Assembly (NCBI GenBank): GCA_964016885.1
Contig: OZ024746.1
Coordinates: 33,728,001-33,792,000, forward strand
From: Eledone cirrhosa
Taxonomy: Eukaryota
DNA: 64,000 nucleotides
Direction of reading: 5' to 3'
Shown here: piece by piece, positions 7,434 through 63,204 of the stretch
Layout of the letters: every line of letters starts with the position of its first letter
How positions within the stretch are numbered: the stretch's first letter is position 1
Notes under the pieces: model-generated
The model's database searches: none
What the model was told of the DNA's origin: nothing
Seen by the model: only the letters and a program-made list of their open reading frames with translations
Position numbers and translations under genes: made by a program

Positions 7434-8895
7434 AATTAGTCCTTCATCAGTGATCTTCCAACCTTCATTGGTATTACTTCGCTTTAAAGATCATATACCT
7501 CTGGTTGGTGCGAGCAATAACTAAATAAAGTTATTGGGACACGTAAAATGATGAAGCGAGCGAGAAATGTAAACAAACATAGATGGTAATGCAACGGAAA
7601 GAGAGGAAGATAAGAAGAGAAGAGACAAGTCCGTGATATCTTTGAAATTTAAGCTCAGTGAAATCATAGACGAGAGGCAAAGACCATCCGACCTGGGCAA
7701 GATGTGAGCAAGAAAAGGATTTTACACAGGTCAAACGGGAGGAAGTGAGAGAGGGGGAGAAGCAGAGAGTGAGTGAGTGAAAGGGTGAGGAAGAGGCCAG
7801 CTGAGAGAGAGTGACTGGCTATACCTCTGGCTGGTAAGAGCAATAACTGAAAAAAAAGCTTATTGGGACAAGTAAATTAGGGTGAAGCGAGCGAGACATG
7901 TAAACAAACGGAGATGGTAATGCAACGGAAAGATAGGAAGCGAAGAGACAGGTTCGTGATATCTATGAACTTAAGCTCGGTGAAATCATAGACGAGACGT
8001 AAAGACCATCCGACCTGGGTGAAATGTGAGCGAGAAAAGGATTTCACACAGGTCAAACGGTTGGAAGTGAGAGAGGGGAGAAGCAGAGAGTGAGTGAGTG
8101 AAAGTGTGAGGAAGAGGCCAGCTGAGAGAGAGTGACTGGCACTGGGGGTAAAAGATGGTGTGAGATACAGAGAAAGGGGAAGCAGTAAGGAAGAAACAGA
8201 CAGGTCGCAGCGGAGGTAAAAATATAAATATATGAAAAATGGCGTGCTGCATGGTTGCACATGGGTTACATATGAATCAAATTAGTCCTTAATCAGTGAT
8301 CTTCCAACCTTCATTGGTATTTCTTTGCTTTAAAGATCATATACCTCTGGTTGGTGCGAGCAATAACTGAAGAAGGTTATTGGGACACGTAAAATAGGGT
8401 GAAGCGAGCGAGACATGTAAACAAACATAGATGGTATTTCAACGGAAAGAGAGGAAGAGAAGAGACAAGTCCGTGATATCTATGAACTTAAGCTCGGTGA
8501 AATCATAGACGAGAGGTAAAGACCATCCGATCTCGGCGAGATGTGAGCGAGAAAAGGATTTGACACAGGTCAAACGAGAGGAAGTGAGAGAGGGGGAGCA
8601 GCAGAGAGTGAGTACCTCTCGTCTATGATTTCACCGATCTTAAGTTCATAGATATCACGGACTTGTCTCTTCTCTCCCTCTCTTTTCGTTGCATTACCAT
8701 CTATGTTTACATGTCTCCCTCGCTTCACCCTATTTTACGTGTCCCAATAACTTTTTCTAGTTATTGCTCGCACCAACCAGAGGTATATGATCTTTAAAGC
8801 GAAGAAATACCAATGAAGATTGGAAGATGACTGATGAAGGACTAATTTTATTCATATGTAACCCATGTGCAACCACGCAGCGCACCATTTTTCAT
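7434..8895. repeat. Tandem (~520 bp unit) plus inverted non-coding element, family H2a
   Basis: atacctctgg recurs at ~7495, 7821 and 8341; ~8610-8895 is the reverse complement of ~8230-8518; flanked by (TA)n; homologous to 50586-51420. Confidence 0.9.
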
Positions 8896-8961
8896 ATATA
8901 TATATAATGTACGTAGTATAATTGTCGATCTTTCAAGCGATGAGAATATATATATATATAT

Positions 8962-9411
8962 AGACGGGACCTGCAGAATGAGTGTTTGAGGACTCTGCCC
9001 CATGAACCTCTCAGGTATAAGTGGGCAAAGTACAAGAAGAAACAGAAAAAGAAAAAAGAAGTTAAAAACGCGGTGGAATAACTTATAGTGCCTCTTAGCT
9101 TATTCGTTAAAGAGTCTACCTGGAATCTCCGAGGTATGAAGTTCAATTCCTCATAAAATAGCTTACAATATAGGGTGATGACGATTAACAGACGGATAGA
9201 AATGTTGTCGTTGGCCGCTATGAGGAATTGAACTTCATACCTCGGAGATATAGGGTAGATGCTTTAACCAATAAGTTAAGAGGCACAGTAAATTATTCCA
9301 CCGCGTTTTTAACTTCATTGTCTTTTTCTTTTTCTTCTTGTTCTTTGCCCACTTATTCCTGAGAGGGACACGAGGACAGAGTACTCAAACACTCATGCTG
9401 CAGGTCCCGTC
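8962..9411. repeat. Fold-back element with ~190 bp imperfect inverted arms containing a tRNA-derived segment
   Basis: 8962-9155 is the reverse complement of ~9220-9411; right arm on - reads gcctcttaacttattggttaaagc...atgaagttcaattcctcatagcggcca (A box, B box, acceptor-like end). Confidence 0.75.
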
Positions 9412-10035
9412 TCCAACTGATCCGGCTGCATTCCCAAGCAAGATCAGCCAAACTCATGAATGTTATCCAACCATCTTGTTTGGGGTCTACCACTTGGTCT
9501 CCTGTCGGTTGGCTTTCCTCGTAAAACCTGACTAAAGATTCTTTCCTGATACATTCTAAACACGTGCCCATCGTATCGGAGCTGTGGCCTCTCAATTCGG
9601 AGAAGTAGCAGCTCTACTTGGAGTGACACCAGGTTCTCCGAGATACGCAATCTATCGAGTAAAGTTACTCCCAAGGCCCTTGAGATGAATCACATTTCGG
9701 CTGCTTGCATTTACGATCGGATTCTTTCGGTCATTGATCAAGATTCATGACCATAGGTAAGTGTTAGCACGAATAGTGAATTGAAGATAGCGAATTTGGC
9801 TTTTACGTATACCGCCCCTCTGATTAACGAATGCTGAAGCATTACTGTACCAGCTCCTCCAATTCTTGCAATTAATACAGCCTCCTGCCTTCCATCATTC
9901 GTAAACACGTCCCCGAGATATTTGAACTTCTCTACCTGCTCCAGTTGAACTCCATGCACATGTAGAATGCACTGAGCAGGCTAATCTTTGCAGGTTTATT
10001 AAAGTAGCAGATAGGTGACTGGTGCGAATAAGACC
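9412..10035 (-). pseudogene. RTE-like LINE 3' fragment (post-RT region)
   Basis: LEQVEKFKYLGDVFTNDG..ARIG..LTYGHES and LR.DGHVFRM..RPSGRPQTRWLDNI motifs, with frameshifts. Confidence 0.75.
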
Positions 10036-10056
10036 ACTGGAACTAAAATTGCAATA

Positions 10057-10240
10057 TAATTGTTTCTTCTTTTGGCACAAGGCCAACAATTATCCCAGTG
10101 CATTACTGGTGCTTTATTTCATCGACCACATAAGGATGAAAGCAAAGACCACCTCGGCGGGATTTGAACTAAGATCGTAAAGGGCCGTAACTCTGTGCTA
10201 CAACGCATGGCTTCCGACCCTCGACTGGTACTGCCAATCC
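10057..10240 (-). mobile_element. SINE family S1
   Basis: Reverse-complement match to 961-1153. Confidence 0.88.
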
Positions 10241-10589
10241 ACCATGGAAATATAATGAGGAAACGAAATAAGAATCATACTGTATTAACCTTCGCGCGAG
10301 TTAACAAGGGATGCGCCCATGTCTTTGTTAGATGGGCCTGTTAAAAATATATTGTAGTCTCGGTTTCATGCTGCAGAAACTGCGTACATCAAATTTAAGA
10401 ATTTGTTTTCAAAACGTTTCAGTTGCTCCGCGTAATTTCTCTAATAAGGAATCCTTAGAGAAATTACATGAAATTCTGGTAATTGTTTAATCACACATAT
10501 GGAATATTAAAAACAATAAGAGCAGATTAACTTGACGAATGATTTTAATTGAAACTATTAGCATAGACTAAATTCATATCTCACGAGTA

Positions 10590-12911: not shown

Positions 12912-12980
12912 AAAATTTTAGTAAGTAAGTCAATTTTCATAACTTTCTTATTTACGTCTTTCATATATATATATATAATA

Positions 12981-14100
12981 TAAAGGTTTACATATACATA
13001 AACATAAAGTCATAGATGTATGTGTTGCAACCGGTCACGTTGTAGCTCTATGAAGAATTAATAAATTAAATAATCAGAGCAATATATCATAAATCATGTC
13101 CTTAGAATTATTAGATAAAATATCTACCATTTCCTCACCCAATTAGCATAATTAACCATATAAAAAATCAATTAGTCCAAGCTATAAGAATAAAGGCTCT
13201 TATGAAGAAATTTCCGAAAGCGGCCTCTTCGCGGTGGCCCCAATAGAGTATTTATCCAACATTTCGACAGCGTGTAGTAACTGACTAAATATACCATCAA
13301 CCATACACAATTAGGTGCAAATTCAAACTTAGAAGAAATGTGTACATATCGTAATTATATCTCTACCATGGTTTCATCCGTATTTTTAGACATCCAATTA
13401 ATAGGATATGTCTGGAGTATCGGATTCATCAGGAGACAAACTCAAAATTAGACATTAAGTTTTCCAAAGTGATCGCGCCAAAAATAGATTAAAAAATGAC
13501 TAAGAATCGTGACGTGGCAGTGGTCAAGTTAGAAAGAATGTGATTAGTTGCTTACGGCGGGTAGGCTTGTTGCTAGAAAGCGCAGCCAAATATCGCCCAA
13601 TTGTATCTCAATCTAACGGGAGATTATTAAATATAAAAGTTCACATATACATAAACATAAAGTCATAGATATATATGTTGCAACCGGTCACGTTGTAGCT
13701 CTATGAAGAATTAATAAATTAAATAATCAGAGAAATATATCATAAATCATGTCCTTAGAATTATTAGATAACATATATACCATTTCCTCTCCCAATTAGC
13801 ATAATTAACCATACAAAAAATCAATTAGACCAAGCTATAAAATAAAGACTCTTATGAAGAAATTTCCGACAAATAACCGAAATATACTGACTATATTTAG
13901 TCAGTTTCTACACGCTGTCGAAATGTGGGATAAATACACTATTGGGGCCACTGCGAAGAGGCCGCTTTCGGTTATTTGTCGGAAATTTCTACATAAGAGC
14001 CTTTATTTTATAGCTTGGTCTAATTGATTTTTTATATGGTTAATTATGCTAATTGGCAGAGGAAATGGTATATATTTTATCTAATAATTCTAAGGACATG
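12981..14100 (-). mobile_element. Retrozyme-like HHR element family H3: ~1.4 tandem copies of a ~650 bp unit plus an inverted partial copy
   Basis: ~12981-13218 repeats at ~13634-13868; ~13890-14100 is the reverse complement of ~13096-13292; no ORF; flanked by (TA)n. Confidence 0.85.
13359..13437 (-). ncRNA. Type I hammerhead ribozyme with extended stem II and palindromic stem III
   Basis: gtctc-CTGATGA-atccg...agacat..atgtct...cggat-GAAA-ccatgg-TA-gagat. Confidence 0.88.
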
Positions 14101-14102
14101 TA

Positions 14103-14130
<28 letters not shown>

Positions 14131-14134
<4 letters not shown>

Positions 14135-17207: not shown

Positions 17208-17842
17208 ATTTATTAATTCTTCATAGAGCCACAAAGTGACCGGTTGTAACATATATAACTTTATGTATATGTGAACCTCTATATTTAATAATCTCCCGTT
17301 AGGTTGAGATGCAATTTGGCGATATTTGGCTGCGCTTCCTAGCAACAAGCCTACCCGCCGTAAGCAACCAATCACATTCTTTCCAACTTGACCACGGCCA
17401 TATTGTGATTCTAAGCCATTTTCGAATCTAATTTTGGCGCGATCGCTTTGGAATACTAAGTGTCTATTTTTGAGTTTGTCTCCTGATGAATCGGAATTCT
17501 GTGGATTTTCTCTTAATTGGATATCTAAAAATACGGATGAAACCATGGTAGAGATATAGTTACGGTATGTACACATTTCTTCTAAGTTTGAATTTACACC
17601 AAATTATGTATGGTTGATTGTATATTTCGTCAATTTCTACATGCTGTCGAAATGTTGGATACATACTCTATTGAGGCCACCGCTAAGAGGCCACTTTCGT
17701 TTGTTTGTCGGAGATTTCTTCATAGGAGGCTTTATCCTTATAGCTTGGTCTAATTGATTTTTTATATGGTTAATTATGCTGATTGGCAGAGGAAATGATA
17801 TATATTTTATTTATCTAATAATTCTATAGACATGATTCATGA

Positions 17843-17845
<3 letters not shown>
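17208..17845 (+). mobile_element. Family H3 monomer (~635 bp), circular permutation of the 12981-14100 unit
   Basis: Reverse-complement homology over the whole unit; its two ends are near-adjacent sequences in the tandem array. Confidence 0.85.
17478..17555 (+). ncRNA. Type I hammerhead ribozyme (family H3)
   Basis: gtctc-CTGATGA-atc...gat-GAAA-ccatgg-TA-gagat; core and stems I and III identical to 13359-13437. Confidence 0.85.
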
Positions 17846-17930
<85 letters not shown>

Positions 17931-18071: not shown

Positions 18072-18912
18072 ATTACATAGACATATGTACACTATATTCT
18101 TATCTTTACATTGTACTTCAGTACATCAAAGGGTATGTACTACTATAGTAATACATACCCTTTTCAAAGACCTCTCTGTATAGATAAGAAATGCATAATC
18201 TGTAAACTAAGCCCCCATATTAACTATAAAATTAGAAACATAGTATATAGTATAAGATGTACTGAAGGACAATGTAAACATAAGAATATAGTGTACATAA
18301 TTGAGACAGCTCGTAGTATAGGAGAACGATTAAATGAACACAGGCGAGAGCTTCAAGATGGAAAAGATTCATCAGTACTCCACCAACATGCTAAAATAGA
18401 ACATCAGGGCAAATTAGAGAACACAGAAATAAAAATAATATCTACACACAGAAAAGACGCAATGTTTAGACAAATCACAGAGGCAATAAACATAAATGAA
18501 CTCCAACCAAAATTAAATAGAAAATACGAATGGAATAGCAACATCACAACTTACAATTAAGGAGAAAATCAAAACACACACACTTTGAACAAGCAATCAA
18601 CCAGTATCATGTAAATAAACAAAAAAATAAACAAATAAAACACACATAGTCACCCGGATCTAACACATGCGCAAACTAAGCACACAACACATACAAAAAC
18701 AAGATGGCGTAGTATAGAACAACGGAGAAGCACAAAACAAAGAGAGAATCCCCAGTGACAATATATGAACATCTGTCCGGTTGTGGAACAAACCAACCAA
18801 CCAACCGGAAATTTATAAATTCTTAAATTCATAAATTTAATTTATAATGAATTGGAGTGGGACGGTTGGTGCGTGTGTTTCTTATTAGCAACATGACCCT
18901 CCCAAAGTATAA
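18072..18912 (+). mobile_element. 5'-truncated Penelope-like element (GIY-YIG plus pseudo-LTR), same family as 59260-63176
   Basis: ORF 18111-18560 IVYSIRC..YIIETARSIGERLNEH; 3' part matches 62906-63176; ~18083-18128 is a short 5' inversion of ~18257-18298. Confidence 0.88.
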
Positions 18913-19467
18913 AAAACATATATATATATATATATTTGAAAAAAAGGAAAAGAATGACTTCACTTGTAGCGTTAAATAATTTGATTTAATTTTATAATAT
19001 TATAATATTATGAGTAGGTAGATCTAGTAGGTTCCTTGTTAACTTCGGTGGCAAGAATGTTAAAGATTCCTGGTTAACTTCTGTTGGAGAACTTTCTCGC
19101 ATTCGTCGGTGGCGATTGTCAAACTGATATCATGTTGTGTTGAGATGTGTGACTATATATAAGAGAGATTTGGATGTGTCTGGTCTATGGGGTGTCGTGT
19201 CAATGAGTGTTGATGATGATAAAGATTTGGAGGAATTAAAGCATACATACACACACACACGCGCGTACACACACACACATACACACACAAATATATACAC
19301 TCAGAAAATGGTGAGGTTGCAAGATAAGGGTGTTTCAGAAGGTGCTTGTAAAGATCCCCTTCTGGTGGTTTTATTTCATTAGCTGAACTTTGATGAGTAT
19401 ATAATGGCATAGCTGAATCAAGACTCTTAAATTTATAAAGAATATATTCTACAAATTTCTTGACTTT

Positions 19468-19952: not shown

Positions 19953-19955
<3 letters not shown>
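19690..19955 (-). mobile_element. Short 3' fragment of R4/Dong-like family A
   Basis: Matches 29110-29500 with deletions; (TTA)n on both sides. Confidence 0.88.
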
Positions 19956-20020
<65 letters not shown>

Positions 20021-20021
<1 letters not shown>

Positions 20022-23000
20022 TTTGAGTCTCAGTCATTGATGTTAGTTAACTGGAAAGTTTGTTGAAATGAATATCAAGCCACTACCTGCAGCCTCAGAT
20101 ATTCAGGACGTATCGGAGGGTTCTTGCTGTTCCCAGCAAGCATGCCTTTTGAAGCGTTCCAAAAAGCGTGAAGGGGCCAATTTTCTTTAACCATCCCTGG
20201 AAACTTTTTGAGATAGTTCCTAGTGTGCCTATGACAATCGGGATCACTTTGACATCATAGCAGTTCCAAATCCTTTTTACCTCCGACTTTAAGTCTTGGT
20301 ATCGGTTAATTTTCTCCCTCTCCTTCTCTTGCACTCTCGTGTCGAATGGGTAAGCCACATCCACAATTAGGCACGATCTTTTTTCTTTGTCCACAACCAC
20401 CAGGTCAGGTCTATTGTGTTCCAGTTTCTTGTCCCTCTGTATCCTAAAATCCCACAACACCTTCACCTGATCGGTTTCTATCACCGACTCTGGCTTATGC
20501 TCATACCACTTCTCAGAATGTGGTAAACTGTTTACTTTGCATAGGTGCCAGTGGATCACCCTGCCCATCACATCATGTCTCCAGCCCTTATAGTGAGTCT
20601 GGGCTAGGTGTTTACACTCGGATACAATGTGAGCCACAGTCTCCTCTCTCTCTCTCCACAGATCCTTCACAGTCGGCTAGCCTTCTCCTTGTAAATATGG
20701 TGTTTCAACCACTTAGATTTGAGGGGCTGCTCCTGCGCAGCCATTAACATTCCTTCTGTAGCCTTTTTAAGGTCTCCTCTTTTCAACCAGTTCCATGTCT
20801 GTGGATCTCTGAATTCAGTTTTCCCAAAGAAGGTACTATGAAGGGATTTTTCCTGAAGGCTGCTCTTTTTCCTTGATGTTATTTCCTCCTTGGACATCCC
20901 TTGGCCTATTGTCCCCCTCCTTCAGTACAGTTCTGATCATTGGCTCCTTACTATCAGTCACGTATTTGTGTAGGTTGTTTTTCTCCATCTGAACACAGTC
21001 CTCTATGCTGATAAGACCTCTTCCACCTTTAGATCTCCTCTAGTAGAGTCTATCGACATCACTCCTCTTGTGGAACATGTTGTAGATAGTCAATAGCTTC
21101 CTAGTCTTCTATCCATTTCTTTTTGTTCAGCAACATTCCATCTCAGAATTCCCGCACTGTACCTAATAATAGACACAGCTCGGGAATTTACTGCACTTAT
21201 GGCATACCTACTGTTCAGATGTGATTTTAATACGCTCCTTATTCTCCGAATGTATTCAGTTCTTATCAATTCCTTCATTTTTTTGTTCTTGATGTCATCA
21301 GCCTCCAGAACACCCAAATACTTGTATCCTTCTTCAGAGTCAATTTCCTTTATCATCTCACCCGTTGTTACCTGGATTCCGTTACTTCTGCTCAACTTGC
21401 CCTCTTCATCACAATGACTCCACACTTACTAATACCAAATTGCATACATATATCACTGCTGAAAATACGGACAGTGTCAACAAGCAGATCCAACTCCTTC
21501 TCACTCTTCCCGAAGAGCTTAAGATCGTCCATGAAGAGGAGGTGATTGATGATAAGCCCTCCCTTTCCCAACCTGTATCCTGCTCTCACTTTTCGCAGTA
21601 CACTGGTCAGAGGCATGAGGGCAAAGACACACAACAGAGGGGACAGACTATCTCTCTGGAAGATACCTCTCTTGATCTTCACGCCTCCCATGGATTCTCC
21701 AGTTGATGTTAACTCTGTTTCCCAGGACTTCATACTTTTGCGCAACAACTGTCTGATGTTATCTGCCACCTTGAAGATCTCCAGGCTTTTGGTGATCCAA
21801 GAATGAGGCACCATGTCAAATGCCTTTTTGTAGTCTATCCATCCCATGGCAAGACCAGTGTGTCTCCTCTTGCAATTCCTCATTACCATCTTATCAATAA
21901 GTAACTGGTCCTTTGTACCACGTGACTTCTTTCGGCATCCTTTCTGTTCGTCCGGTAACAAGTTTTTTGTGTGGAGGTGATGGTAGATTTCCTCAGATAT
22001 AATGCCTGTCAACAGTTTCCACATTACGGACAGACATGTGATAGGTATATAGTTGGTAACATCATTACACTTGATTCGGTCTTTCATTATCAGAACTGGG
22101 GTACCTTTTGTCAACCACTCTGGTACCTCACCTGACATCAAGCAGTCATTGAACATGGTTGTCAGTTTCGGGTGGAGGGATGTTATATTTTTAATCCAAT
22201 ACCCCTGCACACCATCTGGGCCTGGTGATTTCCAGTTGGTTAGTTTTTTGGCCTGCCCCTTAAGAGTTTCAACTGTGATACTCAAATCAGTTTGTTGGTG
22301 TGCCTGTTCACTAATCTCCTTCTGTACTGTCTCAATCCACACTGCCTGGTCATTATGTTTAACATCCTCCTCCCATATTCCTCTCCAGAATGTTTTAGTT
22401 TGTTCCGCCTCAGGGATCAAGTCGTTGCCTCTTTCTTTCCCCTCAAGCTGTCCAAACAGCATCTTCTGGTTGTTCTCGAACATGCGGTTCTGTCTATACT
22501 GACTGACTCTGTTCTCGTATCGCCTGATTTTTGCACTCTTTGCTACAATGCGTTGCTTCAGTTCCTCTATGATAATATTTAGCTTTTTCCTCCTAGTGTT
22601 GTACTTTATTTCCAGTCTATTTTTAGTGTCTATGTTTTTTAGAGTCCCATTCAGTAGGGACTCAAGCTTTCCAATGTCATTTCTCATTTCCTTGATTTGA
22701 CCACTCAGTCGTTTCTTCCACCTAGGATCTGATCTTTCTTGTCTGTTGTTTCCTCTCGCTTTTATACCAAGTAGTTTCCTCACCGTATTTGCTGTTGCTT
22801 TGAGGATATTGTTGCACTGGTGAAGGCTCCTCGCCTCAAGGTATGGGATGACTTTGTTTACCTTAGCTGTTGTTTCTTTTAACTTTTTCCTGTCTACAAA
22901 TCTTAGGTTCATAGGTCTCCCACTATCATTGTTCAATTCATCTACCACTAAGTTTAGGATATCAACCAAATCTTGTCCTAGCCCGTCAGAATCCATCTTC

Positions 23001-23808
23001 TCAGTGGCCGTATCTCTGTTCCAGGTATTATTTATCTCAGCATTCAGATCATTGTCTGCTTCGGGTGGTTCCTCCGTTCTCTCGAACTCTTCACCTTCAT
23101 TTCCCACTGGCTCGTTTGCCTGGCATACTCCACTCTCCATCTCCAAGCTAATCTCTCTGCTCATTTCCTCCAGTTCCAGCTCGCTTATCCACCCATTAGT
23201 TCTTATTACCCGAGCCTGCCCGGCCAATTTTTGTTAATCTAATTTAAATAGACCAATCTCGTTCCAGATGTTATTCATCCGTTTCCTATAGCCTTTCTCC
23301 TTGGGGTTACTCTTCAGGTAACATTGCATAACAGTTCTATACAATTCTTTCGTCCAGTTGGTTCTGGTCCCTTTCCTTCTTCTTCTTCCTCCTCCGACAC
23401 CAGCCGTATTTGGTTGACAGCTAGGTCCCTGCTGCTGAGCCAGGCAACACCTGTTGGGTGAGAGTCTGTCACATGACATTCTAGTGTCCATTTCGCCGTT
23501 ATTCGAACTGTTTAGGTTCGACATTTAAACACTCTTATCGAGGATTGGCGAATGTATGGTTACATAAGCACCGGTGACCTCATCACCTCCGGTGATTTCG
23601 TCACTCCCGGTGATTTTTGTGTGGCATTATCACGCTGTAGACGAACATAAATAAACAAACAAACAAACAGCCAAAAAAAACCCAAGAACGAATAAGCATA
23701 AGTTTCATTGTAATGTAATGTTTGAATGTCTGACTTAGTTTTTCCCTTCCCTTCTCTGTCCGTCTGTTTGTTTTTCTCTTCATTTTCCTTTTCTTTACGT
23801 TTTTCGTA
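20021..23808 (-). mobile_element. Full-length but disrupted R4/Dong-like RLE non-LTR retrotransposon (family A, copy 1)
   Basis: ORF pieces 23524-20095: KSPGPDG, YKKAFDMVPH, LLFMDDLKL (RT); RHD, RPDLVV..DVAYP..EK..RY (RLE); several stops and frameshifts; (TTA)n flanks. Confidence 0.92.
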
Positions 23809-23833
23809 ATTATTATTATTATTATTATTATTA

Positions 23834-26800
23834 CAGTTGCATTTATCTTGCCTTATGTTCATACGAGTTATCACCAAGTCACAACCAGTGACCTCAAGAG
23901 ACAACAAGGTCCGCCATGTTCAAGAAAGAACATACATATACACATGCATCTTTAGTGTTTAGACTTGTGATGTACTTATATTGACAGAATCTTCCTTAGT
24001 ATATGGGCAGTTCCCATTAGTACTATCTTTTGTATTTCTCCTATACGCGGGTTTCCTGGTATTTGCGATAAGTAATCATTAGACCCTTTAGGTATCATTG
24101 CCAGAGCGCCTACAACCACTGGTATTGTTTTAGTTCTCAATTTCCAGATTTTTCCAATTTCTATCTCAAGGTCCTTATACTTGCTCAATTATTCCAATGT
24201 TTTTATAGATACATTCTTGTCTATTGGAACAGATATATCAATTAGCAGGCATACCCTCTTTTTAAAGTCCTTCAATATTATATCAGGTCTATTTGCATCT
24301 ATTTTTCGGTCTGTTTGGATGCTAAAGTTCCACAAGATTGAGATGTGATCTTTTTCAAGTATTGGAGGTGGTTGATTGGGCAGGTCAAAATGCTTACACA
24401 TTATCCAATGTATGTATTGTGAGGCTCTGTCATGCCTGTTTAGGTATTCGGTTGGAGCTATAGGACTGCACATTGAAATTATATGGTCAATGGTCTCTGG
24501 TTGTTTTTTGCATACACGGCATAATGGGCTGCATCCATTTTTTATTAAGTTGGCTTCGTAATTTTTTGTTGGCAGACACTGATCTTGTGCTGATATAATC
24601 AGTCCTTCAGTCTCCGATTTCAGTCCAGAGGATGCCAACCACTGATGGGTTAAAGTTTTGTCGACATCAGGATTGTTAGCTCGCTCTGGGTATTTTCCAT
24701 ACAGAGGCTTTTCTTGCCATTTCTTAGCCAGTTTCTGTAGCAGTTCTTTCTTTGCAGTTACTTTTACCTGCTTTGCTTTTTCTGTGTTTTCCATTTCAGC
24801 AGTAAATGGGACTTCTGAAATTTGTAGTCCATTACTGTATCTTTGTGCATCTTTTGTAATTGAATACGATCTTTTGATGCTTTCGTGTTTCAAAACGAGT
24901 TTGATAATCCAATCATGTGATTCCCTTAGATATGTAGATAATCCAATTGTTGCAGTTTTCAAGGCAATGTCTAACTGGAATAACCCACGTCCTCCTTCTT
25001 TCCTAGGGAGATATATTCTATCTATATCTGCCTTAGGGTGATGCATTCTGTGCATGGTTAAGAATTTTCGAATTTTTGTATCGAGCCTACGGATCTCTGT
25101 GCTTGACCAGTTGATGACATTGTAACTGTAGATTACTACTGGTATGGCAAGCGTGTTTATGGCATCAATCCTATTCCTTGCATTCAATCTCGTTCTTAAG
25201 ATTGCTCTTACTCTGCGGTAACATTCCTTCCTTATCCTGTACCTCATTGTCGAGTGCTTGATTCCGTCTCCTTCACAAACACCTAGATATTTGTAAGTTT
25301 TTTCTTGATCAAGTTCTCTTATCACGTTCCCCCGATCAAGATTAATGTCTGAACTCTTCAGCAGCTTTCCTCTGGTGAACGTTGCTTTGGCGCATTTATC
25401 TAGTCAAAACTCCACTTTAATGTCATCACTGAACTGCTCCACAGTGGATAATAGCCCTTGCAATTGTTCATCATTTTTTTGCAAATAGTTTCAGGTCATC
25501 CATGTAGAACAAGTGATTAATGGTTTTGTCATAGACTTTATATCCATGTTTTGTTTCATTGAGCATTTTACTTAATGGTATAAGTGCTATGCAGAATAAA
25601 AGCGGTGATAAAGAGTCACCCTGAAAAATTCCACAATTAATATTAACTTCTCCAGCTTCCAGTGATTTTGTTTCACTATTCAAAAGGAGTGTCGTTTTCC
25701 ATGTCTTCATACTGAATGACAAAAACCTCCTGACAACGGGGGATATTTTGAAAATCTCTAAACATTTTTCAATCCTACTGTGTGGCAAACTATCGAATGC
25801 TTTTTTATAATCTTACCAATCAATCAATAGATTTTTGTGTCTAATATGACAATCTTCCAGTATCATTTTGTTAACCAGAAGCTGATCCTTACAGCCATAT
25901 TGAGCCTCGTTTACACCCTTTCTGCTCAATGGGAAATAGGTCATTTGTTATCAGGTGGTCATATGTGTATTCAGTTAGGACTGATGTTAACATTTTATAC
26001 ATTGTGGTCAAGCAAGTTATCGGTCTGTAATTTTTGGGATTGTTTGTCTCATCATTCTTCGGAAGCAGGAATGTAATGCCGTTAACTAGCCATGATGGTA
26101 TCTTTTCTGGCTCCTTAACTATTTCATTGTAAATTTGGGCTAACAGCTCATGAGACTCTGTGAAGGCATTTATCCAAAAGTTTTGTATTTTGTCTTTTCC
26201 TCGGGATTTCCATTTGCTGGTTTTTCTTAGAGCCAAGCGCAACTGTTCAACTGTTATATTTTCCCAAATTTGTTCCTCAAGGTAAGCTGTATCTTTCATT
26301 TGTCTGTCTATCCATGGGGCATGTATGTTATGAACTTTTTCTTCGGCCCAGATCTTTTCCCAGAACTCTTGCACTTCCTCTTTGGGTGGTATTGATTTAG
26401 CAGTTATTGTTGACTTACCAATTTTTCTGTAGAAGTTTCTTTGGTTGTTTTTGAACATATTATTGTCCTTATAGAATCTAGATCGTTTTTCAAAGCGCCT
26501 TATACGAGCAGCTTTGGCCGACACTTTTTGCTTGATTATTTCTATCAGCATGTCTATGTCACTTGTTGATTTTATACTGTACTTTTTTTTCAATTTTCTA
26601 AGTTTAGTTTGTTTAACATGTTCACCTACTTTATAGTTTGTTAAAATTTCTATGTCAGATCGGAGAAGGTTTATTTGGCGATTGATGTTCTCTTGCCAAG
26701 TAGATTTCTTGTGGGAATTCCTTTGTTTTTTCATCTTCACTCCACATAAGTGAGTGGTGACTTTAGCCGATGCATAATAGAGATGATTTAAATCAGTAAT

Positions 26801-27975
26801 GTTTAGTTTGTTTGTGATGATAATGTTTTTGAGAATTATATTAGTCTTGTGTATTATCTTTTGGTTCTGTGGATTGGCAGTATCGGTAGAGGGTCGGACG
26901 CCATGCTTTGACGCATAGAGTTACGGCCCTTGCCATTCTGAGTTCAAATCCCGCCGAGGTTAACTTTGCCTTTCATCCTTATGGGGTCGATAAAATAAAG
27001 TACCAGTAATACACTGGGTAATTGCTGGCCTTGTGCCAAAAGTAGAAACAATTATCTTTTGGTTCTGTTTGGAGTTCTGGATCTTAGGGAGGGTGTCTCG
27101 TTTCCCCATGTCAGATTCTTTCATTTTCATCCATTCGATCATAATTTCATCCTTCAAGTTGGCAAGTTCATTCTCATTCATTTCTTTATCATTTACGATC
27201 TCATTATTTTCATTTGGAGTTTCATCTTGAGCATGCACTCCCTCCACTTTTTCGATCATTTCTTTAATTTGTTCTGTTGCCAGTGATTCCGCCCCAACCC
27301 TGGGATTCGAAGTGTTACAATTTACCTCGTTTTCACTGACACATGTTTCATTTTCCCTTCGCTGACTTTGTGCTAATAGCTTGATCTGATTAATTTCTAT
27401 ATCAGTTAGTAACTTTTTTCTTACAATATTTCTTCGTATATTGGCTAGTTTGTTACTGTCAATATAGCCTCTGTTTTCGGGATGTTTCTTTTTCCAGTTG
27501 ATATATGTCTGTTCTGTATTCGATGTATTTGATGGGTAGTACATGGCAGTGTAGAAAGCCTCAAGGAGTTCTTTATTATCTTCCCTTGACCATTTTTCTC
27601 TCTTTTTCATTGGATTTCTTGGTGGTGAGCATGGAGGGCCAACAGTAGGAGTATTCCAGTTATGTGAGGTCTCCAGCTCCGAAGTGATGGGAAGGTTTGA
27701 ACCATTAGCTGATTTTTCAACCCCAGTCTGGTTCCTCTCTGAGGGACGCGGCCCTTTTTTATCCGGGTGACGGCCGATCCTGTATGAGATTTTATCATTA
27801 GACATTTACTTTATTTTGTCGCGTTTTATCCTTATCCGCCAAGGGGTAATCATTTCGTGTTATCACTTCTAGAACGAGTGTCAACCAAGACTAGAGGGGT
27901 CGTTCTCCCCTAGAGACACGGCTATTCCCCGCCGGCCGCCATCCCGGTATTTCTTGGTCACGGGGTTTTCTTTCT
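23834..27975 (-). mobile_element. Full-length disrupted R4/Dong-like RLE retrotransposon (family B) with SINE insertion
   Basis: ORF pieces 27805-23976: GIFQGDSLSPLLF, LFYMDDLKL, CRVC..ETIDHIISMC, RHD, RPDII..DIS.P; (TAA)n tail. Confidence 0.92.
26871..27050 (+). mobile_element. SINE family S1 with 18 bp target-site duplication
   Basis: attatcttttggttctgt at 26853-26870 and 27051-27068. Confidence 0.95.
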
Positions 27976-29030: not shown

Positions 29031-29102
<72 letters not shown>

Positions 29103-29110
29103 GTTGTTAT
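28946..29110. repeat. (TTC)n-(TTA)n compound microsatellite; the TAA part is the tail or target of family A copy 2
   Basis: Direct reading. Confidence 0.95.
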
Positions 29111-32100
29111 TCCTTGAATCTCAGTCATTGATGTTGGTTAACTGGAAAGTCCGTTGGATTGAATATCAAGCCACTACCTGCAGCCTCAGATATTCAGGAC
29201 GTATCGGAGGGTTCTTGCTGTTCCAAGCAAGCATGCCTTTTGAAGCGTTCCAAAAAGCGTGAAGGGGACGATTTTCTTTAACCATCCCTGGAAACTTTTG
29301 GAGATAGTCCCCAGTGCGCCTAAGACAATCGGGATCACTTTGACTTCATGGCAGTTCCAAATCCTTTTCACCTCCCACTTTAGGTCCTGGTATCGGTTAA
29401 TTTTCTCCCTCTCCTTCTCTTGCACTCTCGTGTCGAACGGGCAGGCCACATCCACAATCAGACACGATCTTTTTTCTTTGTCCACAACCACCAGGTCAGG
29501 TCTATTGTGTTCCAGTTTTTTGTCCGTCTGTATCCTAAAATTCCACACCACCTTCAAATGATTGTTCTCCATCACCGCCTCTGGCCTATGCTCATACCAT
29601 TTCTCAGAATGTGGTAAATTGTTTACTTTGCACAGGTACCAGTGGATCACCCTGCCCATCACATCGTGTCTCCAGCCCTTATAGTGGGTCTGGGCTAGGT
29701 GTTTACACTTGGACACAATGTGAGCCACAGTCTCCTCTCTCTCTCCACAGATCCTGCACAGTGGGCTAGCCTCCTCCTTGTAAATATGGTGCTTCAACCA
29801 CTTCGTTTTGAGGGCCTGCTCCTGCGCAGCCATTAGCATTCCTTCTGTAGCCTTTTTGAGGTCTCCTCTTCTCAACCAGTTCCATGTCTGTGGATCTCTA
29901 AATTCAGTTTTCTCAAAGAAGGTACTATGAAGGGATTTTCCCTTAAGGCTGCTCTTCCTCCTTGATGTTATTTCCTCCTTGGACATCCCCTGGCCTACTG
30001 TCCCCTCCTTCAGTACAGTTCTGAGCATTGGCTCCTTACTATAGGTCACGTATTTGTATAGGTGGTTTTTCTCCATCTGAACACAGTCCTCTATGCTGAT
30101 AAGACCTCTGCCACCCTCAGATCTCCTTAGGTAGAGTCTATCGACATCACTCCTCTCGTGGAACATGTTGTAGATAGTCAATAGCTTCCTAGTCTTCCTA
30201 TCCATTTCTTTTTGTTCAGCAACATTCCATCTCAGAATTCCCGCACTGTACCTAATAATAGACACAGCTCGGGAATTTACTGCGCTTATGGCAATTCTGC
30301 TGTTCAGATGTGACTTCAATACGCTCCTTACTCTCCGAATGTATTCAGTTCTTAACAATTCCTTCATTTTTTTTTGTTCTTTATGCCATCAGCCTCCAGA
30401 ACGCCCAAATACTTGTATCCTTCCTCAGAGTCAATTTCCTTTATCATCTCACCTGTTGGTATCTGGATCCCGTTACTTCTGCTCAACCTACCCCTCTTCA
30501 TCACAATGACTCCACATTTACCAATACCAAACTGCATACATATATCACTGCTGAAAATACGGACAGTGTCAACAAGCACATCCAACTCCTTCTCACTTTC
30601 CCCGAAGAGCTTAAGATCGTCCATGAAGAGGAGGTGATTGATGGTAAGCTCTCCCCTTCCCAACTTGTATCCTGCTCTCACTTTTCGCAGCATAATGGTC
30701 AAGGGCATCAGGGCAAGGACAAACAACAGAGGGGACAGGCTATCTCCCTGGAAGATACCTCTCTTGATCTTCACGCTTCCCAAGGATACTCCAGTTGATG
30801 TCAACTCTGTCTCCCAGGACCCCATACTCCTGCCTAGCAACTGTCTGATGTTATCTGACACCCTGAAGATCTCCAGGCTTTTGGTGATCCAGGAATGAGG
30901 CACCATGTCAAATGCCTTTCTGTAGTCTATCCATCCCATGGCAAGATCAGTGTGTCTCCTCCTGCAATTCCCCATTACCATCTTATCAATAAGTAACTGG
31001 TCCTGTGTACCACGTGACTTCTTTCGGCATCCTTTCTGTTCGTCCGGTAACAAGTTGTTTGTGTGGAGGTGATGGTAGATTTCTTCAGACACAATGCTCG
31101 TCAACAGTTTCCACATTACGGATAGACATGTGATAGGTCTATAGTTGGTAACATCATTACCCTTGATTCGGTCTTTCATTATCAAAACTGTGGTACCTTT
31201 TGTCAACCACTCTGGCACCTCACCCGACACCAAGCAACTATTGAACATGGCCGTCAGCTTCGGGTGGAGGGATGTTAAATGTTTAATCCAATACCCCTGC
31301 ACACCATCTGGGCCTGGTGATTTCCAGTTGGTTAGTTTTTTGGCCTGCCCCTTAAGAGTTTCAACTGTGATACTCGAATCAGTTTGTTGTTGTGCCTGCT
31401 CACCGATCTCCCTCTGTACTGTCTCAATCCACCCTGCCTGGGCATTGCGTCTAACATCCTGCTCCCATATTCCTCTCCAGAATGTTTTAGTTTGCTCCGC
31501 CCCAGGGATCAAGTCGTTGCCTCTTTCTTTCCCCTCAAGCTGTCCAAACAGCATCTTCTGGTTGTTGTCGAACATGCGGTTCTGTTTATACTGACTGACT
31601 CTGTTCTCGTATCGCCTGATTTTTGCACTCTTTGCTACAATGCGTTGCTTCAGTTCCTGTATGATAATATTTAGCTTTTTCCTCCTAGTTTTGTATTTTA
31701 TTTCCAGTCTATTTTTAGTGCCTATGTTTTTTAGTGTCCCATTCAGTAGTGACTCAAGCTTTCCTATGTCATTTCTCATTTCCCCGATTTGCCCACTCAG
31801 TCGCTTCTTCCACCACGGCTCTGCTCTTTCTTGCCTGTTGTTTCCTCTCGCTTTTATACCAAGTAGTTTCCTCATCGTATTTGCTGTTGCTTTGAGGATA
31901 TTGTTGCACTGGTGAAGGCTCCTCGCCTCAAGGTATGGGATGACTTTGTTTACCTTAGCTGTTGTTTCTTTTAACTTTTTCCTGTCTACAAATCTTAGGT
32001 TCATAGGTCTTCCACTATCATTGTTCAATTCATCTACCACTAAATTTAGGATGTCAACCGAATCTTGTCCTAGCCCGTCAGCATTCATCTCCTCAGTGGC

Positions 32101-32930
32101 CGTATCTCTGTTCCAGGTATTATTTATCTCAGTATTCAGATCATTGTCTGCTTCGGGTGGTTCCTCCGTTCTCAGGACCTCTTCACCTTCATTTCCCACT
32201 GGCTCGCTTGTCTGGCATACTACACCCGCCATCTCCAAGCCATTCTCTCTGCTCAGTTCCTCCAGTTCCAGCTCGCTTATCCATCCATTAGTTCTTATTA
32301 CCCGAGCCTGCCCGGCCAATTTTTGTTCATCTAATTTAAATAAACCAATCTCGTTCCAGATGTTATGCATCCGTCTCCTGTAGCCCCTCTCCTTGGGGTC
32401 ACTTTTCAGGTAACATTGCATAACAGTTCTATTCAATTCTTTCGTCCAGTTGGTTCTGGCCCCTTTCCTTCTTCTCCTTCCTCCAACATCAGCAGTATTT
32501 GGTTGACAGTCAGGTTCCTGCTGCTGAGCCAGGGGGCACCTGTTGGGTGAGAGTCTGTCACATGACGTTCTAGTCTCCATTTCACCGTTATTCGAACTGT
32601 TTATGTTCGATATTTAAACACTCTTATCGAGGATTGGCGAATGTATGGTTACATATCCATCTGTGGATCCGCCATTCCACTTGGCCCTTGTGTGGCATTA
32701 TCACCACGCTGTATACGAACACACATAAACAAACAAACACACAGGCAGAAAGGGCCCCAAAAATGAATAAGCATAAGTTTCATTGTAATGTAGTGTTCGA
32801 ATGACTGACTTAGTTTTTGTTTTTTAAGTTTTAGTTTTTCCCCCCTCTTCTCTGTCCGTCCGCCTGCTTCTCTCTTCATTCTTATTTTCTTTACGTTTTT
32901 TGGTTTTTTTTTTTTATTTTTTGTATTATT
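29110..32930 (-). mobile_element. Near-intact R4/Dong-like RLE retrotransposon (family A, copy 2)
   Basis: Two abutting ORFs (738 aa and 393 aa); colinear with copy 1; (TTA)n on both sides. Confidence 0.93.
29186..32580 (-). CDS. RT - CCHC zinc knuckle - restriction-like endonuclease polyprotein (~1130 aa, one frameshift at ~30367-30375)
   Basis: GIFQGDSLSPLLF, FMDD, CRICGEREETVAHIVSKC, RHD, RPDLVVVD..DVACP; frameshift lies in a T9 run that is T7 in copy 1. Confidence 0.85.
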
Positions 32931-32931
32931 A

Positions 32932-32966
<35 letters not shown>

Positions 32967-33179
32967 GAATGCCATGGTTGACGGAGGCTCGGCTCTGTAA
33001 GGTATAGTAATTTTTAACCGTTAAAACAATTGTAAATTGTTTAAAACTTGAACCAAATTGTTGATAAAGACACCCTCCTCCTCGTGAGAGGGGTCTTTCT
33101 GTCCGTTATTTGGCCCTTCGGGGTTAAATAACCAGTTATTGGGGTTTTGTACCCAAAATTTCATTTTAAACAAAAAAAC

Positions 33180-35285
33180 ATGGCTACCAAAAAGAAATTT
33201 CATACGTCACTCCCACTCATTCCGTCTTCTTCTTCCTCAATCATCACTACAGCAGAGAGAAGATTGTCTCTCTCCCTCCCTTCTTTAAATGTGTCTCTCT
33301 CCCTCCCTTCTCTTTCGCAAGCGACGAAAGAAAAGAAAAGTCTCGTGCAAAGCGTGCAAGGTTTCTCCACGACGACGACGACAGCGACGAAACAGGTGTG
33401 CGGGAAATACGAAAACCCAGTTCATTCGTCTGACGTCAGGAATAATAGCAGTAGCAGCCGTAATAACAACAGCAACAGTGACAATGAAAACAACAGTAGC
33501 AGCCGCAACAGCATCACCAGCAGCATAAACAACAACAGCATAAACAACAACAGCATTAGCAGCAACACCAACAACAACCACAGCAACAGCGGCGGAGGCA
33601 GTAGTCGTAGTACCTGCAGCAACAAAAGTACCAGCAGCTCTGACGACAACAACAACAGCAGAGAAAAACCAATCTCATTTGCAGGTATTGCGAAAAACTT
33701 GGAAACAATCCTCATAACAAATGAGGAATTAGAGGAAGCGAAGAAGATGGTGACAAAGAACGGACACCGAGCAATCTGCAAGGCAGCGAAAAATTTTTTC
33801 GAAACCCAAGAGCACTGTACGGTCACGTACCGTACAGTAAGTACAAAATCCCGTAGGGTGGAAAGAGCCACAGAGGCCCAAATACAAAAAGCCTTGGGGT
33901 CTGTGTGGCAGAGGAAAACGCACATCACCCGAGGCAAAAAATACGCCACCGTAGACGTACTTTTTGCCACACCCCAGGAGGCAAAGGCCCAATCAGTAGT
34001 GACCCTAAGGAGCGAGGAAATGGTGTTGGTGCCCTCCTACTGCGGGCAAAAAATTGTGAGGGTCAAACTGACCCACGTCCCCCCCGGAATGACCCCTTCT
34101 TGGCTGGCCGCGTCTGTCCTCGTCGGAATCGAGGACAAAACAACTGTACTGCAAGTACAGAAAAAAGTAAGAGAAGATTGGGTCGGCTCCTCCATTGAGA
34201 TGCTAATCCAAACCAACCAGGAGTGCATCGAAGCTATCCCGGATGTGATAGACTTCGATAACGGCACTCAACTGCCCATAAGTGTTGAGGGCAAACGCCC
34301 GAAATGCTTTCGCTGTGGATCGAAGACTCACCTCAGGGCCTTCTGCAACGAGAAGACCCTGAGAAAGGAGAAAACCCCCCTCCTTCCGAATCCGGCTCCA
34401 CGGCTACCAGCAACAGGACAAGCGGCAACCAGGAACGATAGGTCCGTGGCACCCATACCCACTCCACGGAAATCAAAGACAGCAGCAGCAGTGGAAATAT
34501 TAACAACAACAACAGCAATACCAAATGCAGCTGCAACAGAGACTCCAGTGCAAACATCACCAACAACAACAAGTGAAAGAGTGGAGCTGGTACCCCTCCC
34601 CGACCTTACAGAATCAGACATGGAGTGTGAGGTGGGAGAGGGATGGCAAAAGGTCGCAAGAAGGCACAAACGCAGAAGCAGCGCATCGTCGCCTTTGAAA
34701 AGGGAGGAAAGAAATGAGAAAAGGGTAAAGTCTACTGCAAAGAGACCCACAGCAGCAACACCACCAACACCATCACCACCCACACCAGCACCACCATCAC
34801 CACCGGCGACAACCCCACCGCCAACAATACCTTCAACACCACCACCACAAGCACCAACATCGCAAACACAACAACAAAACACACACACCCAGCAACAACG
34901 ACAAGAAAATAGCAGAACCACACCCCACCCCCAGAAAAACAAATGCACGGCAATAAACACACACAACAAGAAACTAATGACTTACATAATTGAACACACA
35001 GACATTTCACAACAGGACTACATAATACCAGCACCAATCAAAACGCCTACTAACATAAGACTGCTAAAAATAGCACAGAAACAATACACAAACATTAAAA
35101 CGAAATTCCCCAACGCAGTTGGTGATTTCAGGGACCTAGGAGGAACCATTAATCGAAGAGTATATTCAGACATTCTCTTAGAAGAGCCGACGACCAGCCG
35201 AAGGGACGATTCAACGGTCCCTTCACCAGACGATCAAGTGAAAAGGGATGTAAAAACCATCCCTCCTCTACCAAAAGTACGGTAA
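33180..35285 (+). CDS. LINE ORF1 protein (gag-like, CX2CX4HX4C zinc knuckle, low-complexity N/S- and P/T-rich arms)
   Basis: First ATG at 33180 within the 33147-35285 ORF; CFRCGSKTHLRAFC; immediately upstream of ORF2. Confidence 0.88.
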   Translation: MATKKKFHTSLPLIPSSSSSIITTAERRLSLSLPSLNVSLSLPSLSQATKEKKSLVQSVQGFSTTTTTATKQVCGKYENPVHSSDVRNNSSSSRNNNSNSDNENNSSSRNSITSSINNNSINNNSISSNTNNNHSNSGGGSSRSTCSNKSTSSSDDNNNSREKPISFAGIAKNLETILITNEELEEAKKMVTKNGHRAICKAAKNFFETQEHCTVTYRTVSTKSRRVERATEAQIQKALGSVWQRKTHITRGKKYATVDVLFATPQEAKAQSVVTLRSEEMVLVPSYCGQKIVRVKLTHVPPGMTPSWLAASVLVGIEDKTTVLQVQKKVREDWVGSSIEMLIQTNQECIEAIPDVIDFDNGTQLPISVEGKRPKCFRCGSKTHLRAFCNEKTLRKEKTPLLPNPAPRLPATGQAATRNDRSVAPIPTPRKSKTAAAVEILTTTTAIPNAAATETPVQTSPTTTSERVELVPLPDLTESDMECEVGEGWQKVARRHKRRSSASSPLKREERNEKRVKSTAKRPTAATPPTPSPPTPAPPSPPATTPPPTIPSTPPPQAPTSQTQQQNTHTQQQRQENSRTTPHPQKNKCTAINTHNKKLMTYIIEHTDISQQDYIIPAPIKTPTNIRLLKIAQKQYTNIKTKFPNAVGDFRDLGGTINRRVYSDILLEEPTTSRRDDSTVPSPDDQVKRDVKTIPPLPKVR

Positions 35286-35320
35286 GTGGTCTTTCCCATC
35301 TTTTCCACTCTATTTTAAAC

Positions 35321-38300: not shown

Positions 38301-38740
38301 ATGGAGGTGCCGTCAGCCGGGCATGTCCGAGATGCGCGCAGGGCGACGAAACCGTCCTGCACGCACTCGTCCAGTGTCCGAAAATTGCTGACTTGTGGGT
38401 TTATGTCGAACACCTGCTGTCGCGTTTAGGACGGATCCAGCTATCATCTGAGTCTATCGTGAGGATTGCCCCGCCCTCCTCCTTTAGCCGGGAAGGGCAG
38501 GCAGTTTTTATCTGTCTGGTGGCCATGGCGAAAGAGATAGTATGGTGGACACGTTTGAAAGGGCTGAAGACGAGCACTTACCTCTTCGGTGATGCTCTGA
38601 TTGACTTTTTCAAATTTCATTTGAAAAGGAAAATCAGAGTAGAGAAGGAAGTGCTCTCTTCCCAGCATTTTGTTGAAAGATGGGTGAGAGAAGCAAGAAT
38701 GGCCCGAGTGAATGGGCCGACTCTGAGTATATATCTGTAA
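35321..38740 (+). CDS. LINE ORF2: APE endonuclease - reverse transcriptase - C-terminal zinc finger (1139 aa)
   Basis: SINARGL, SET, GDWN, YLDRVF, TDH (APE); KSPGLDG, DQSKAFDRVDH, QGCPLS, YADD (RT); CPRC..ETVLHALVQC; uninterrupted. Confidence 0.96.
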   Translation: MTSLRIGSINARGLGSSWKQGHLLNDLRSLNIDVVAISETRISEARAFAPIFGGYDVYASPSRPGSGGGVAVLFRRGLDLAIRAIFLDPEGKLVVLDVTSGDGQAFRLVAVYAPTGAGRPDFFRRLETFLGTSRSLVLVGDWNGILDARWDCVGLADRGGGCKSLTNLLRRFELSDRYRLDFPNVPMWTWTNRIGSSRSYLDRVFCREIDRSSIGCPQFKIVSYTDHKFVTCVLDLDRLHRRGPGYWKLNASLPARKAYRDRISELVKRALTGAIVNNKWWFALKRAIRIESIRFSKALAIEKNRAEGELVRKLDEALSKGIATDVLAAKLALDQFFNAKHEGCVVRARVRALRHEGTKAVQWARVAEARRGNKATIRSLVDHDGRMLLDPGQMCEAFQRHFAQLFGGSGGPGRGMDFSVYLDGLPRLSATEAKCCEKPITAAEVREAMTVCTRGKSPGLDGLPYELYVQMPDLFGGLLADVYCNWQQNGRIPSSVSRGAVALLRKDPNKGDNIDNFRPITLLNTEFKILAKVLAKRLALVVGGLVGEAQTCAIPDRSIHDNLHLMRYIVERVAREPGTGGSLINLDQSKAFDRVDHRYLAAVLRAAGFGPVFRGWIAAMHSDICSVVRVNGHLSEPFNIMRSVRQGCPLSSLLYVLTLEPLLHKLETLRGVPRELGCGRSVSAYADDVTVVVSNAKHIEAIGTTLREYEAVTGAMINQEKSVGLQLGTWRGRSMPSNSVVGRWTDGPVKLLGVWFGPDLQTDKNWDEVTSRVASLTQKWAERKLSLKGRAEVANAYIASVICYRLTVVPCPKPRLTALERLLFRFLWKGRAPMVRRSICCQHPLRGGLGMPWLMMRRHALRLRHLHLFLDGDQVWSPFARRVFPQLVSLTELQSWVKRRPRGSAWRLECLQALTALDQSGNVIGGNSTSAFYRGLVEGKSDDVLGETLGVDENQLANLFGRTFGPGPMDNFQKSLAWQCYRGALPVRDKLYRHGGAVSRACPRCAQGDETVLHALVQCPKIADLWVYVEHLLSRLGRIQLSSESIVRIAPPSSFSREGQAVFICLVAMAKEIVWWTRLKGLKTSTYLFGDALIDFFKFHLKRKIRVEKEVLSSQHFVERWVREARMARVNGPTLSIYL

Positions 38741-50381: not shown

Positions 50382-50563
50382 GATTGGCAGTATCGGTAGA
50401 GAGTCGGACACCATGCTTTGAAGCATCGAGTTACGTCCCTTTATGATCTGAGTTCAAATCCCGCCGAGGTTAACTTTGCCTTTTATCCTTACGGGGGCGA
50501 TAAAATAAAGTACCAGTAATGTAGTGGTTAATTGCTGGACTTGTGCCTAAAATAGAAACAATT
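50382..50563 (+). mobile_element. SINE family S1
   Basis: Match to 26871-27050. Confidence 0.9.
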
Positions 50564-50585
50564 ATATATATATATATATATATAT

Positions 50586-51416: not shown

Positions 51417-51420
<4 letters not shown>
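50586..51420. repeat. Tandem (~574 bp unit) plus inverted non-coding element, family H2b
   Basis: agcctgagg at 50702 and 51276; 50586-50694 inverted; homologous to 7434-8895; (TA)n flanks. Confidence 0.88.
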
Positions 51421-58283: not shown

Positions 58284-58646
58284 TGGCAGTATCAGTAGAG
58301 GGTCGGACGCCATGCGTTCCAGCATAGTTACGTCCCTTTACGATCTGAGTTCAAATCCCGCCGAGGTTGACTTTGCCTTTCATCCTTACGGGGTCGATAA
58401 AATAAAGTACCAGTAATGCACTGGTTAATTGCTGGCCTTGTGCCTAAAGTAGAAACAATTATTATGGCAGTATCAGTAGAGGGTCGGACGCCATGCTTTC
58501 CAGCATAGTTACGTCCCTTTACGATCTGAGTTCAAATCCCGCCGAGGTTGATTTTGCCTTTCATCCTTACGGGTTCGATAAAATAAAGTACCAGTAATGC
58601 ACTGGGTCATTGTTGGCCTTGTGCCAAATGTAGAAATAATTATTAT
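58284..58646 (+). mobile_element. Head-to-tail SINE S1 dimer (181 bp period)
   Basis: tggcagtatcagtagagggtcggacgcc at 58284 and 58465. Confidence 0.92.

Positions 58647-63172: not shown

Positions 63173-63204
<32 letters not shown>

Follow-up and report, generated by a model that had tools for sequence, protein, structure and literature searches.

Eckert et al. (2023) assumed that the blocks S, G and C of the hammerhead ribozyme cannot be interrupted and listed six orders for them (PMC10085705). The order S, G, C has already been published as type SGC; hammerheads of this type (HRIMA-1 and a variant) cleave in vitro, and they were recorded in metatranscriptomes only and in no genome of a known organism (PMC10085705). 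Type I hammerheads are carried by animal non-LTR retrozymes and by Penelope-like elements (10.64898/2026.07.22.740005; 10.1101/2021.04.23.441226; PMC7229834). In this study we analyzed H2, a repeat element found in the window, the whole stretch of 64,000 nucleotides under analysis. The RNA motif in the H2 unit appears to be a variant hammerhead that none of the six published permutations covers and is probably active at the level of the family. The overall explanation that we prefer, and regard as likely, is a fold formed within a single copy with predicted self-cleavage after position 17.

The window consists of AT-rich, microsatellite-laden eukaryotic DNA, possibly octopus-like judging from a SINE, with remnants of LINE and Penelope-like elements, and it contains two H2 insertions, both flanked by (TA)n. 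H2a (7434 to 8895) comprises tandem copies on the minus strand (8613 to 7434) and an inverted arm on the plus strand (8615 to 8895), and H2b (50586 to 51420) comprises a short inverted copy on the minus strand and a plus-strand tandem. Measured from cut site to cut site, the H2a unit (7820 to 8339, minus strand) is 520 nt long; the H2b unit has 574 nt. Sequence, coordinates, unit lengths and the tandem and inverted-arm arrangement were as described in an earlier note on this DNA, which had also seen no open reading frame: the H2 units have no ATG-started frame and hold two stop-to-stop frames of 123 to 134 amino acids without methionine. The earlier note had taken H2a and H2b for two diverged families. 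Diverged they are, but 392 of 496 aligned positions are identical and the homology spans the whole unit, so that the pair provides one contrast and not two separate origins. Apart from the junction and the deletion discussed below, the indels between H2a copies were 1 to 8 nt long and lay elsewhere than the cut site. In two runs of one related sample (X1 and X2), one H2 unit was covered by 2,589 and 2,690 contigs, respectively, with the highest contig depth at the motif, and head-to-tail joints of about 520 nt were found among these contigs. The H2 family is therefore high-copy in that sample too. H2 is a retro-element without coding capacity that is present in many copies, and its unit holds a covarying RNA of four helices with all core parts of a hammerhead; H2 showed no similarity to the Penelope-like remnants within the window.

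The strands of the motif follow one another in the order II-5′, z-5′, III-5′, cut site, I-5′, II-3′, GAAA, III-3′, z-3′, I-3′ and CUGAUGA. In copy a3 (plus strand), an 8-bp hairpin h (8745 to 8766) lies directly upstream of the 5′ strand of stem II (8767 to 8771; partner 8799 to 8803), whose base 8767 is the mismatched position 10.1. Further downstream are the 5′ strand of helix z (8773 to 8778; partner 8818 to 8823), which forms the non-canonical arm of the kink-turn, the unbulged strand of the kink-turn (3n, G and A, 8779 to 8781; bulged strand 8812 to 8817) and block S (8782 to 8793), made up of the 5′ strand of stem III (8782 to 8786), position 17 (8787) and the 5′ strand of stem I (8788 to 8793). 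The stretch from 8794 to 8811 contains a 5-nt linker (8794 to 8798), the 3′ strand of stem II (8799 to 8803), GAA (8804 to 8806) and the 3′ strand of stem III (8807 to 8811), and that from 8825 to 8837 contains the 3′ strand of stem I (8825 to 8830) and CUGAUGA (8831 to 8837). The scissile bond is predicted at 8787/8788; the earlier note had placed the cut after 8787 and after 50714, and the full fold led to the same position. CUGAnGA directly after stem I is present in the motif (with its letters imposed by the search pattern in the outside loci described below), as are UH at the joint of stems III and I and a GAAA whose pair A15.1-U16.1 begins stem III.

Stems I and III and the upstream hairpin paired in the window copies as the earlier note had stated. 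That note had found no convincing stem II and described neither this stem nor helix z nor the kink-turn sequence, and the motif is more complete than it had noted. Stem II does form, with a partner strand upstream of the cut site and not after CUGAUGA, and it covaries: the four bases preceding position 11.1 find their partners in four bases upstream of z. With this upstream strand, 5 of 5 pairs were formed in the six outside loci and 4 of 5 in four window copies; the strands after CUGAUGA gave only 0 to 3 of 5 pairs with the 3′ strand of stem II in all 12 copies. The core-proximal pair 10.1-11.1 is mismatched in all six window copies and paired in all six outside loci. Helix z (6 bp), which starts one base after the 5′ strand of stem II, pairs bases upstream of stem III with bases just before the 3′ strand of stem I, and both z (two cases) and stem I show compensatory changes between H2a and H2b. 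Between stem III and z, a 3-nt bulge and GA on each strand constitute a standard kink-turn sequence (3-nt bulge, G·A and A·G between two helices), found in 11 of 12 copies; its letters were observed in H2 before the outside search, whose pattern then imposed them on the outside loci. For z′, we gave up an alternative pairing with the strand that follows the core in favor of the better, covarying upstream one. An HDV-like reading was rejected by eye because the HDV J4/2 strand has no room, and a box C/D snoRNA reading because its snoRNA scores lay far under threshold.

Six near-complete copies of the motif are present in the window, three in H2a and three in H2b, together with one copy (a4) that ends at the predicted cut. 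A covariance model run on the window found the six copies only, with nothing else above 11.5 bits, and a core-only pattern gave one match in the window and none in 100 shuffles. None of the window copies is free of defects, and all core letters were kept only in a3 (position 17 at 8787), where stem I and z each contain one mismatch. In a1 (7442 to 7514, minus strand, position 17 at 7494) A13 is changed, and in a2 (8288 to 8360, minus strand, position 17 at 8340) G8 and one stem II letter are changed, both departing from the run-contig majority. In b1 (51268 to 51340, plus strand, position 17 at 51288) the 15.1/16.1 pair is lost. In b2 (50694 to 50766, plus strand, position 17 at 50714) A9 is changed and the upstream part was lost at the inversion, and b3 (50620 to 50684, minus strand, position 17 at 50664) has an 8-nt deletion starting one base after position 17. 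Loose ends of run contigs at window positions 8363 to 8365 represent variants of hairpin h with letters changed on both arms, one of them fully compensatory and one mismatched on the motif strand.

Matches outside the window were sought with a pattern that prescribed the core, the letters of the kink-turn and the approximate spacing and, apart from two pairs of stem III, left the stem letters free. It matched 84 loci in metagenomes, 46 in prokaryote genomes, and at least 120 and 10 in viral sequences, with at least 263 matches in 258 of 260 loci. Six loci (L140, L153, L167, L178, L185 and L249) stood apart, forming 13 to 15 of the 15 free pairs of stems III and I and helix z, compared to at most 11 in the other 257 matches listed. 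Since these pairs served to pick the six loci and the core and kink-turn letters were imposed by the pattern, neither lends independent support in the outside loci. Three features played no part in the selection: the four pairs of stem II plus a fifth (6 of 6 outside loci versus 20 of 257 listed others), the linker K-UAAW (6 of 6 versus 1 of 257) and the exact spacing 16/14 (6 of 6 versus 24 of 257), with background rates that are only rough because of redundant loci and looser spacings among the 257. Stem II has four different sequences in the outside loci; at its core-proximal pair, four of these loci have G-C, one has G-U and another U-A. L178, L153 and L249 form one family (76 to 84% identical), so that the six loci represent about four outside lineages; L261 is a longer copy of L249, and a model search of 85 loci yielded no further member. 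A hairpin precedes stem II in all 10 folded sequences, with unrelated letters and only partially in L140. A possible closing helix x, noticed by eye (5′ strand 8741 to 8744, partner 8839 to 8842), is clearly formed in L140 and L167, in part in L185 and weakly in H2, and in the proposed register it was absent in the constrained folds of H2, L153, L178 and L249. In L185, positions 388 to 460 hold a fully paired motif with G10.1-C11.1.

In a gap-free alignment of 12 rows, 92.7% of the cells were paired and 16 of 22 pairs changed on both sides, compared to 29 to 43% paired cells and 1 to 5 such pairs in slid-register controls. The covariation score of these 12 copies was 0.676 versus 0.07 to 0.10 in slid registers, and a comparison with shuffles is inflated by the relatedness and selection of the copies. 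Stem I was 97% paired, with all six pairs changing on both sides, stem III 95% with three such pairs, and helix z 93% with three of six. Compensatory changes occur in all four helices, and RNAalifold recovered z and III unprompted. We are highly confident that the fold is real. The pseudoknotted hammerhead topology that had been suggested for the motif is supported.

Rfam produced no match at gathering score in the window, no hammerhead among the best 150 of 170 window matches with E up to 5, and no hammerhead at 8700 to 8900 or at the six outside loci. H2-specific patterns had no match in viral or metagenome contigs, and with general patterns the full fold was found in none of the viral contigs among the matches listed, which were chance-like only.

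In five of the six outside loci, the motif stands just behind the stop codon, and on the same strand, of a LINE open reading frame of fish type that encodes reverse transcriptase and endonuclease; in L178, the stop codon lies about 60 nt before the cut site. L185 showed no LINE frame within 400 nt upstream. The encoded single protein has about 1,000 to 1,150 amino acids, with RVT_1, a zf-RVT-like zinc-binding region and a PD..E-type C-terminus, and named relatives of it occur in teleost fishes and a bivalve. We take the C-terminus to resemble a restriction-like endonuclease and that of the Hero clade of the R2-superfamily; Pfam did not recognize the isolated endonuclease piece. About 150 nt beyond the cut site are shared by the outside elements. 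L249 is a 2.7-kb contig in the record of a bacterial MAG with more than 80% protein identity to fish-type LINE elements, and L261 (G001:C302) is likewise a bacterial-MAG contig, with a fish-type LINE end and tRNA-like repeats; both are likely host contamination. The window contains no close relative of the outside reverse transcriptase, only matches of 18 to 29% identity. Its own LINE-type reverse transcriptase elements (19955 to 23833, 29046 to 32931, 24189 to 27805 and 33132 to 38740; two of them 91% identical) lie beside (ATT)n, and the motif was found in none of them.

From its sequence and predicted fold, we judge that the H2-type motif is likely to be an active cis-cleaving hammerhead at the level of the family. 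Copy a4 stops at position 17 (7820, minus strand) and is followed directly by sequence from the interior of the unit, 199 nt further along. This junction, 7820/7819, lies exactly on the predicted bond and has no microhomology, and chance would place it there at one position in 520. The same joint recurs in X1 and X2, and it is probably a single amplified event. In addition, the deletion in b3 begins one base from the predicted bond. Counting against activity, pair 10.1-11.1 is mismatched in every window copy and the core is damaged in five of the six. These two observations would fit the idea that the fold cleaves in the LINE relatives, where the 10.1-11.1 pair is formed, and that little or no activity is left in the H2 branch, which kept the structure for recognition by reverse transcriptase. 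We consider this unlikely, as the family majority retains CUGAUGA (more than 99.9% of depth at 8291, from 40 of 90 variant rows), the junction falls on the exact bond, and stem I and z underwent compensatory changes between H2a and H2b. Moreover, position 11.1 is U in 86% of the run contigs (from 40 of 90 variant rows) and could pair with the A after A9.

Another proposal extends the loss of function to the whole motif class, which would be a hammerhead-derived, non-cleaving, protein-binding structure of LINE 3′ ends with the kink-turn as the protein site. In its favor, the outside elements retain sequence 3′ of the cut site, and protein or tertiary contacts are required for folding with several of the 3b.3n pairs (PMC4382518). 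The exact hammerhead register, with three stems around the core across diverged lineages, and the junction at the predicted bond speak against it, and we regard it as still less probable than a loss of activity in H2. A type III hammerhead that becomes complete only with the following unit or a second molecule, the former as the earlier note had considered, fits the tandem arrangement of H2 and the dimeric hammerheads cited for Penelope-like elements, but it is very improbable and not needed, given that the outside loci hold the whole fold locally, that no conserved second GAAA or stem III exists in the units (each unit has a single further GAAA, which forms 4 of 5 pairs in H2a, where the mismatch is central, and 3 of 5 in H2b), that the strands following CUGAUGA pair so poorly with stem II, that the L249 contig has a single match, and that the invariant linker lengths argue for one folded chain.

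According to the preferred explanation of a self-contained, cleaving fold, a single H2 copy would form, on its own, a closed hammerhead with three arms and cleave its own chain after position 17 (8787 in a3). By folding back the arm of stem III, the kink-turn would bring z to the far ends of stems I and II. Cuts at successive copies of a tandem transcript would release unit-length RNA, which a reverse transcriptase supplied in trans would copy into tandem and inverted insertions at (TA)n, and this enzyme may sometimes jump onto a cut end. The helper could be a Penelope-like element or the LINE clade that shares the motif, with about even support for the two; in favor of the former, the layout of the H2 insertions fits that of Penelope-like elements, and canonical hammerhead elements of this layout are present in the window. 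In the autonomous LINEs, the fold would cut the 3′ UTR, so that cleavage would have to be partial, gated or reversible. Efficient cleavage would strip the approximately 150 nt downstream of the cut from the LINE template, and since the outside relatives keep these nucleotides, cleavage there should not be fast and final. One candidate for such gating is an L7Ae/15.5K-family protein that binds kink-turns. Protein gating is suggested by the C-G and A-U pairs among the 3b.3n positions, since according to published rules folding with these pairs depends on a protein or on tertiary contacts (PMC4382518).

Other repeats were observed in the window. A second family with a canonical type I hammerhead, located at 13432 (minus strand) and 17483 (plus strand) in elements of about 12977 to 14134 and 17208 to 17873, has a long stem II, a palindromic stem III and a TA-flanked tandem and inverted layout, and it is absent from the Rfam matches. 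Minimal type I hammerhead-like cores with a short stem II occur at 14287, 63307 and 62984 (plus strand) and at 59452 (minus strand), two of the four lying in the inverted ends of a Penelope-like element. A broken Penelope-like element with inverted ends and a weak RVT_1 match spans 59260 to 63176, and a related piece at 18081 to 18935 has a frame that looked like GIY-YIG by eye and had no Pfam match. Directly after H2a, a nested inverted-repeat element (8962 to 9412) has arms of 39, 58 and 109 nt. A dispersed, SINE-like repeat of 180 nt is found at 966 to 1151, 10053 to 10242, 26872 to 27055, 50382 to 50565 and 58284 to 58646, once as a tandem pair.

The broadest reading of these data is a seventh natural hammerhead arrangement, split at A9 and closed by a kink-turn, perhaps dependent on 15.5K/L7Ae, that would be a regular feature at the 3′ ends of LINEs from a widespread animal clade and of the non-autonomous partners of this clade; on the sequence data we rate the odds for and against this as balanced. 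If true, the H2 motif is an exception to the stated rule that forbids any interruption of the CUGAnGA block, and non-circular hammerheads, recorded so far in unassigned RNAs of metatranscriptomes, gain a place in animal retro-elements. The kink-turn would be a geometric answer to the puzzle of stem III and the interaction helix of Eckert et al. (PMC10085705), and a ribozyme at a LINE 3′ end would imply that cleavage has to be controlled. As standard descriptors and Rfam miss the motif, many more copies may be unannotated.

Compared with type SGC, the H2 motif has the same block order and likewise a short linker from stem I to stem II, of 5 nt versus about 3 (PMC10085705), and z lies in the same place as the SGC helix that joins the far ends of stems I and II (PMC10085705). 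We infer that the motif is a type-SGC fold whose two ends are joined through the kink-turn, with the opening of the chain moved to a point between A9 and position 10.1 that takes up hairpin h and often helix x. Its stem II 5′ strand lies upstream of block S, which splits block C, whereas in type SGC this strand follows CUGAUGA after 0 to 1 nt (PMC10085705). H2 is thus predicted to act as an SGC hammerhead does but fails one defining SGC feature, the unbroken block C, and we did not file it as a member; the Eckert descriptor, which demands stem II right after the core, would miss it (PMC10085705). No description of such a split block C was found in the mainly open-access literature or the available part of the Eckert supplement. 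Furthermore, z is joined to stem III via the kink-turn sequence, a kink-turn being unmentioned in that part of the supplement, and unlike type SGC the H2 motif occurs in animal-type genomic DNA (PMC10085705). The sequence signature is that of the standard kink-turn (PMC5061560, PMC4382518), here placed inside a natural hammerhead arm; no such case was found in the mainly open-access literature.

As a repeat, H2 resembles the animal non-LTR retrozymes, which also consist of non-coding, tandem, many-copy hammerhead units (10.64898/2026.07.22.740005), but its motif is pseudoknotted and not of type I. With Penelope-like insertions it shares partial tandems, an inverted 5′-truncated arm and microsatellite flanks (10.1101/2021.04.23.441226), but its outside relatives stand behind a reverse transcriptase/endonuclease LINE frame and not a Penelope frame. 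No report of a ribozyme or hammerhead in Hero non-LTR retrotransposons was found in the mainly open-access literature. R2-superfamily LINEs, with reverse transcriptase and a C-terminal restriction-like endonuclease, have the same single-ORF architecture as the outside loci; R2 has its ribozyme at the 5′ end, whereas the H2-type motif lies in the LINE 3′ UTR.
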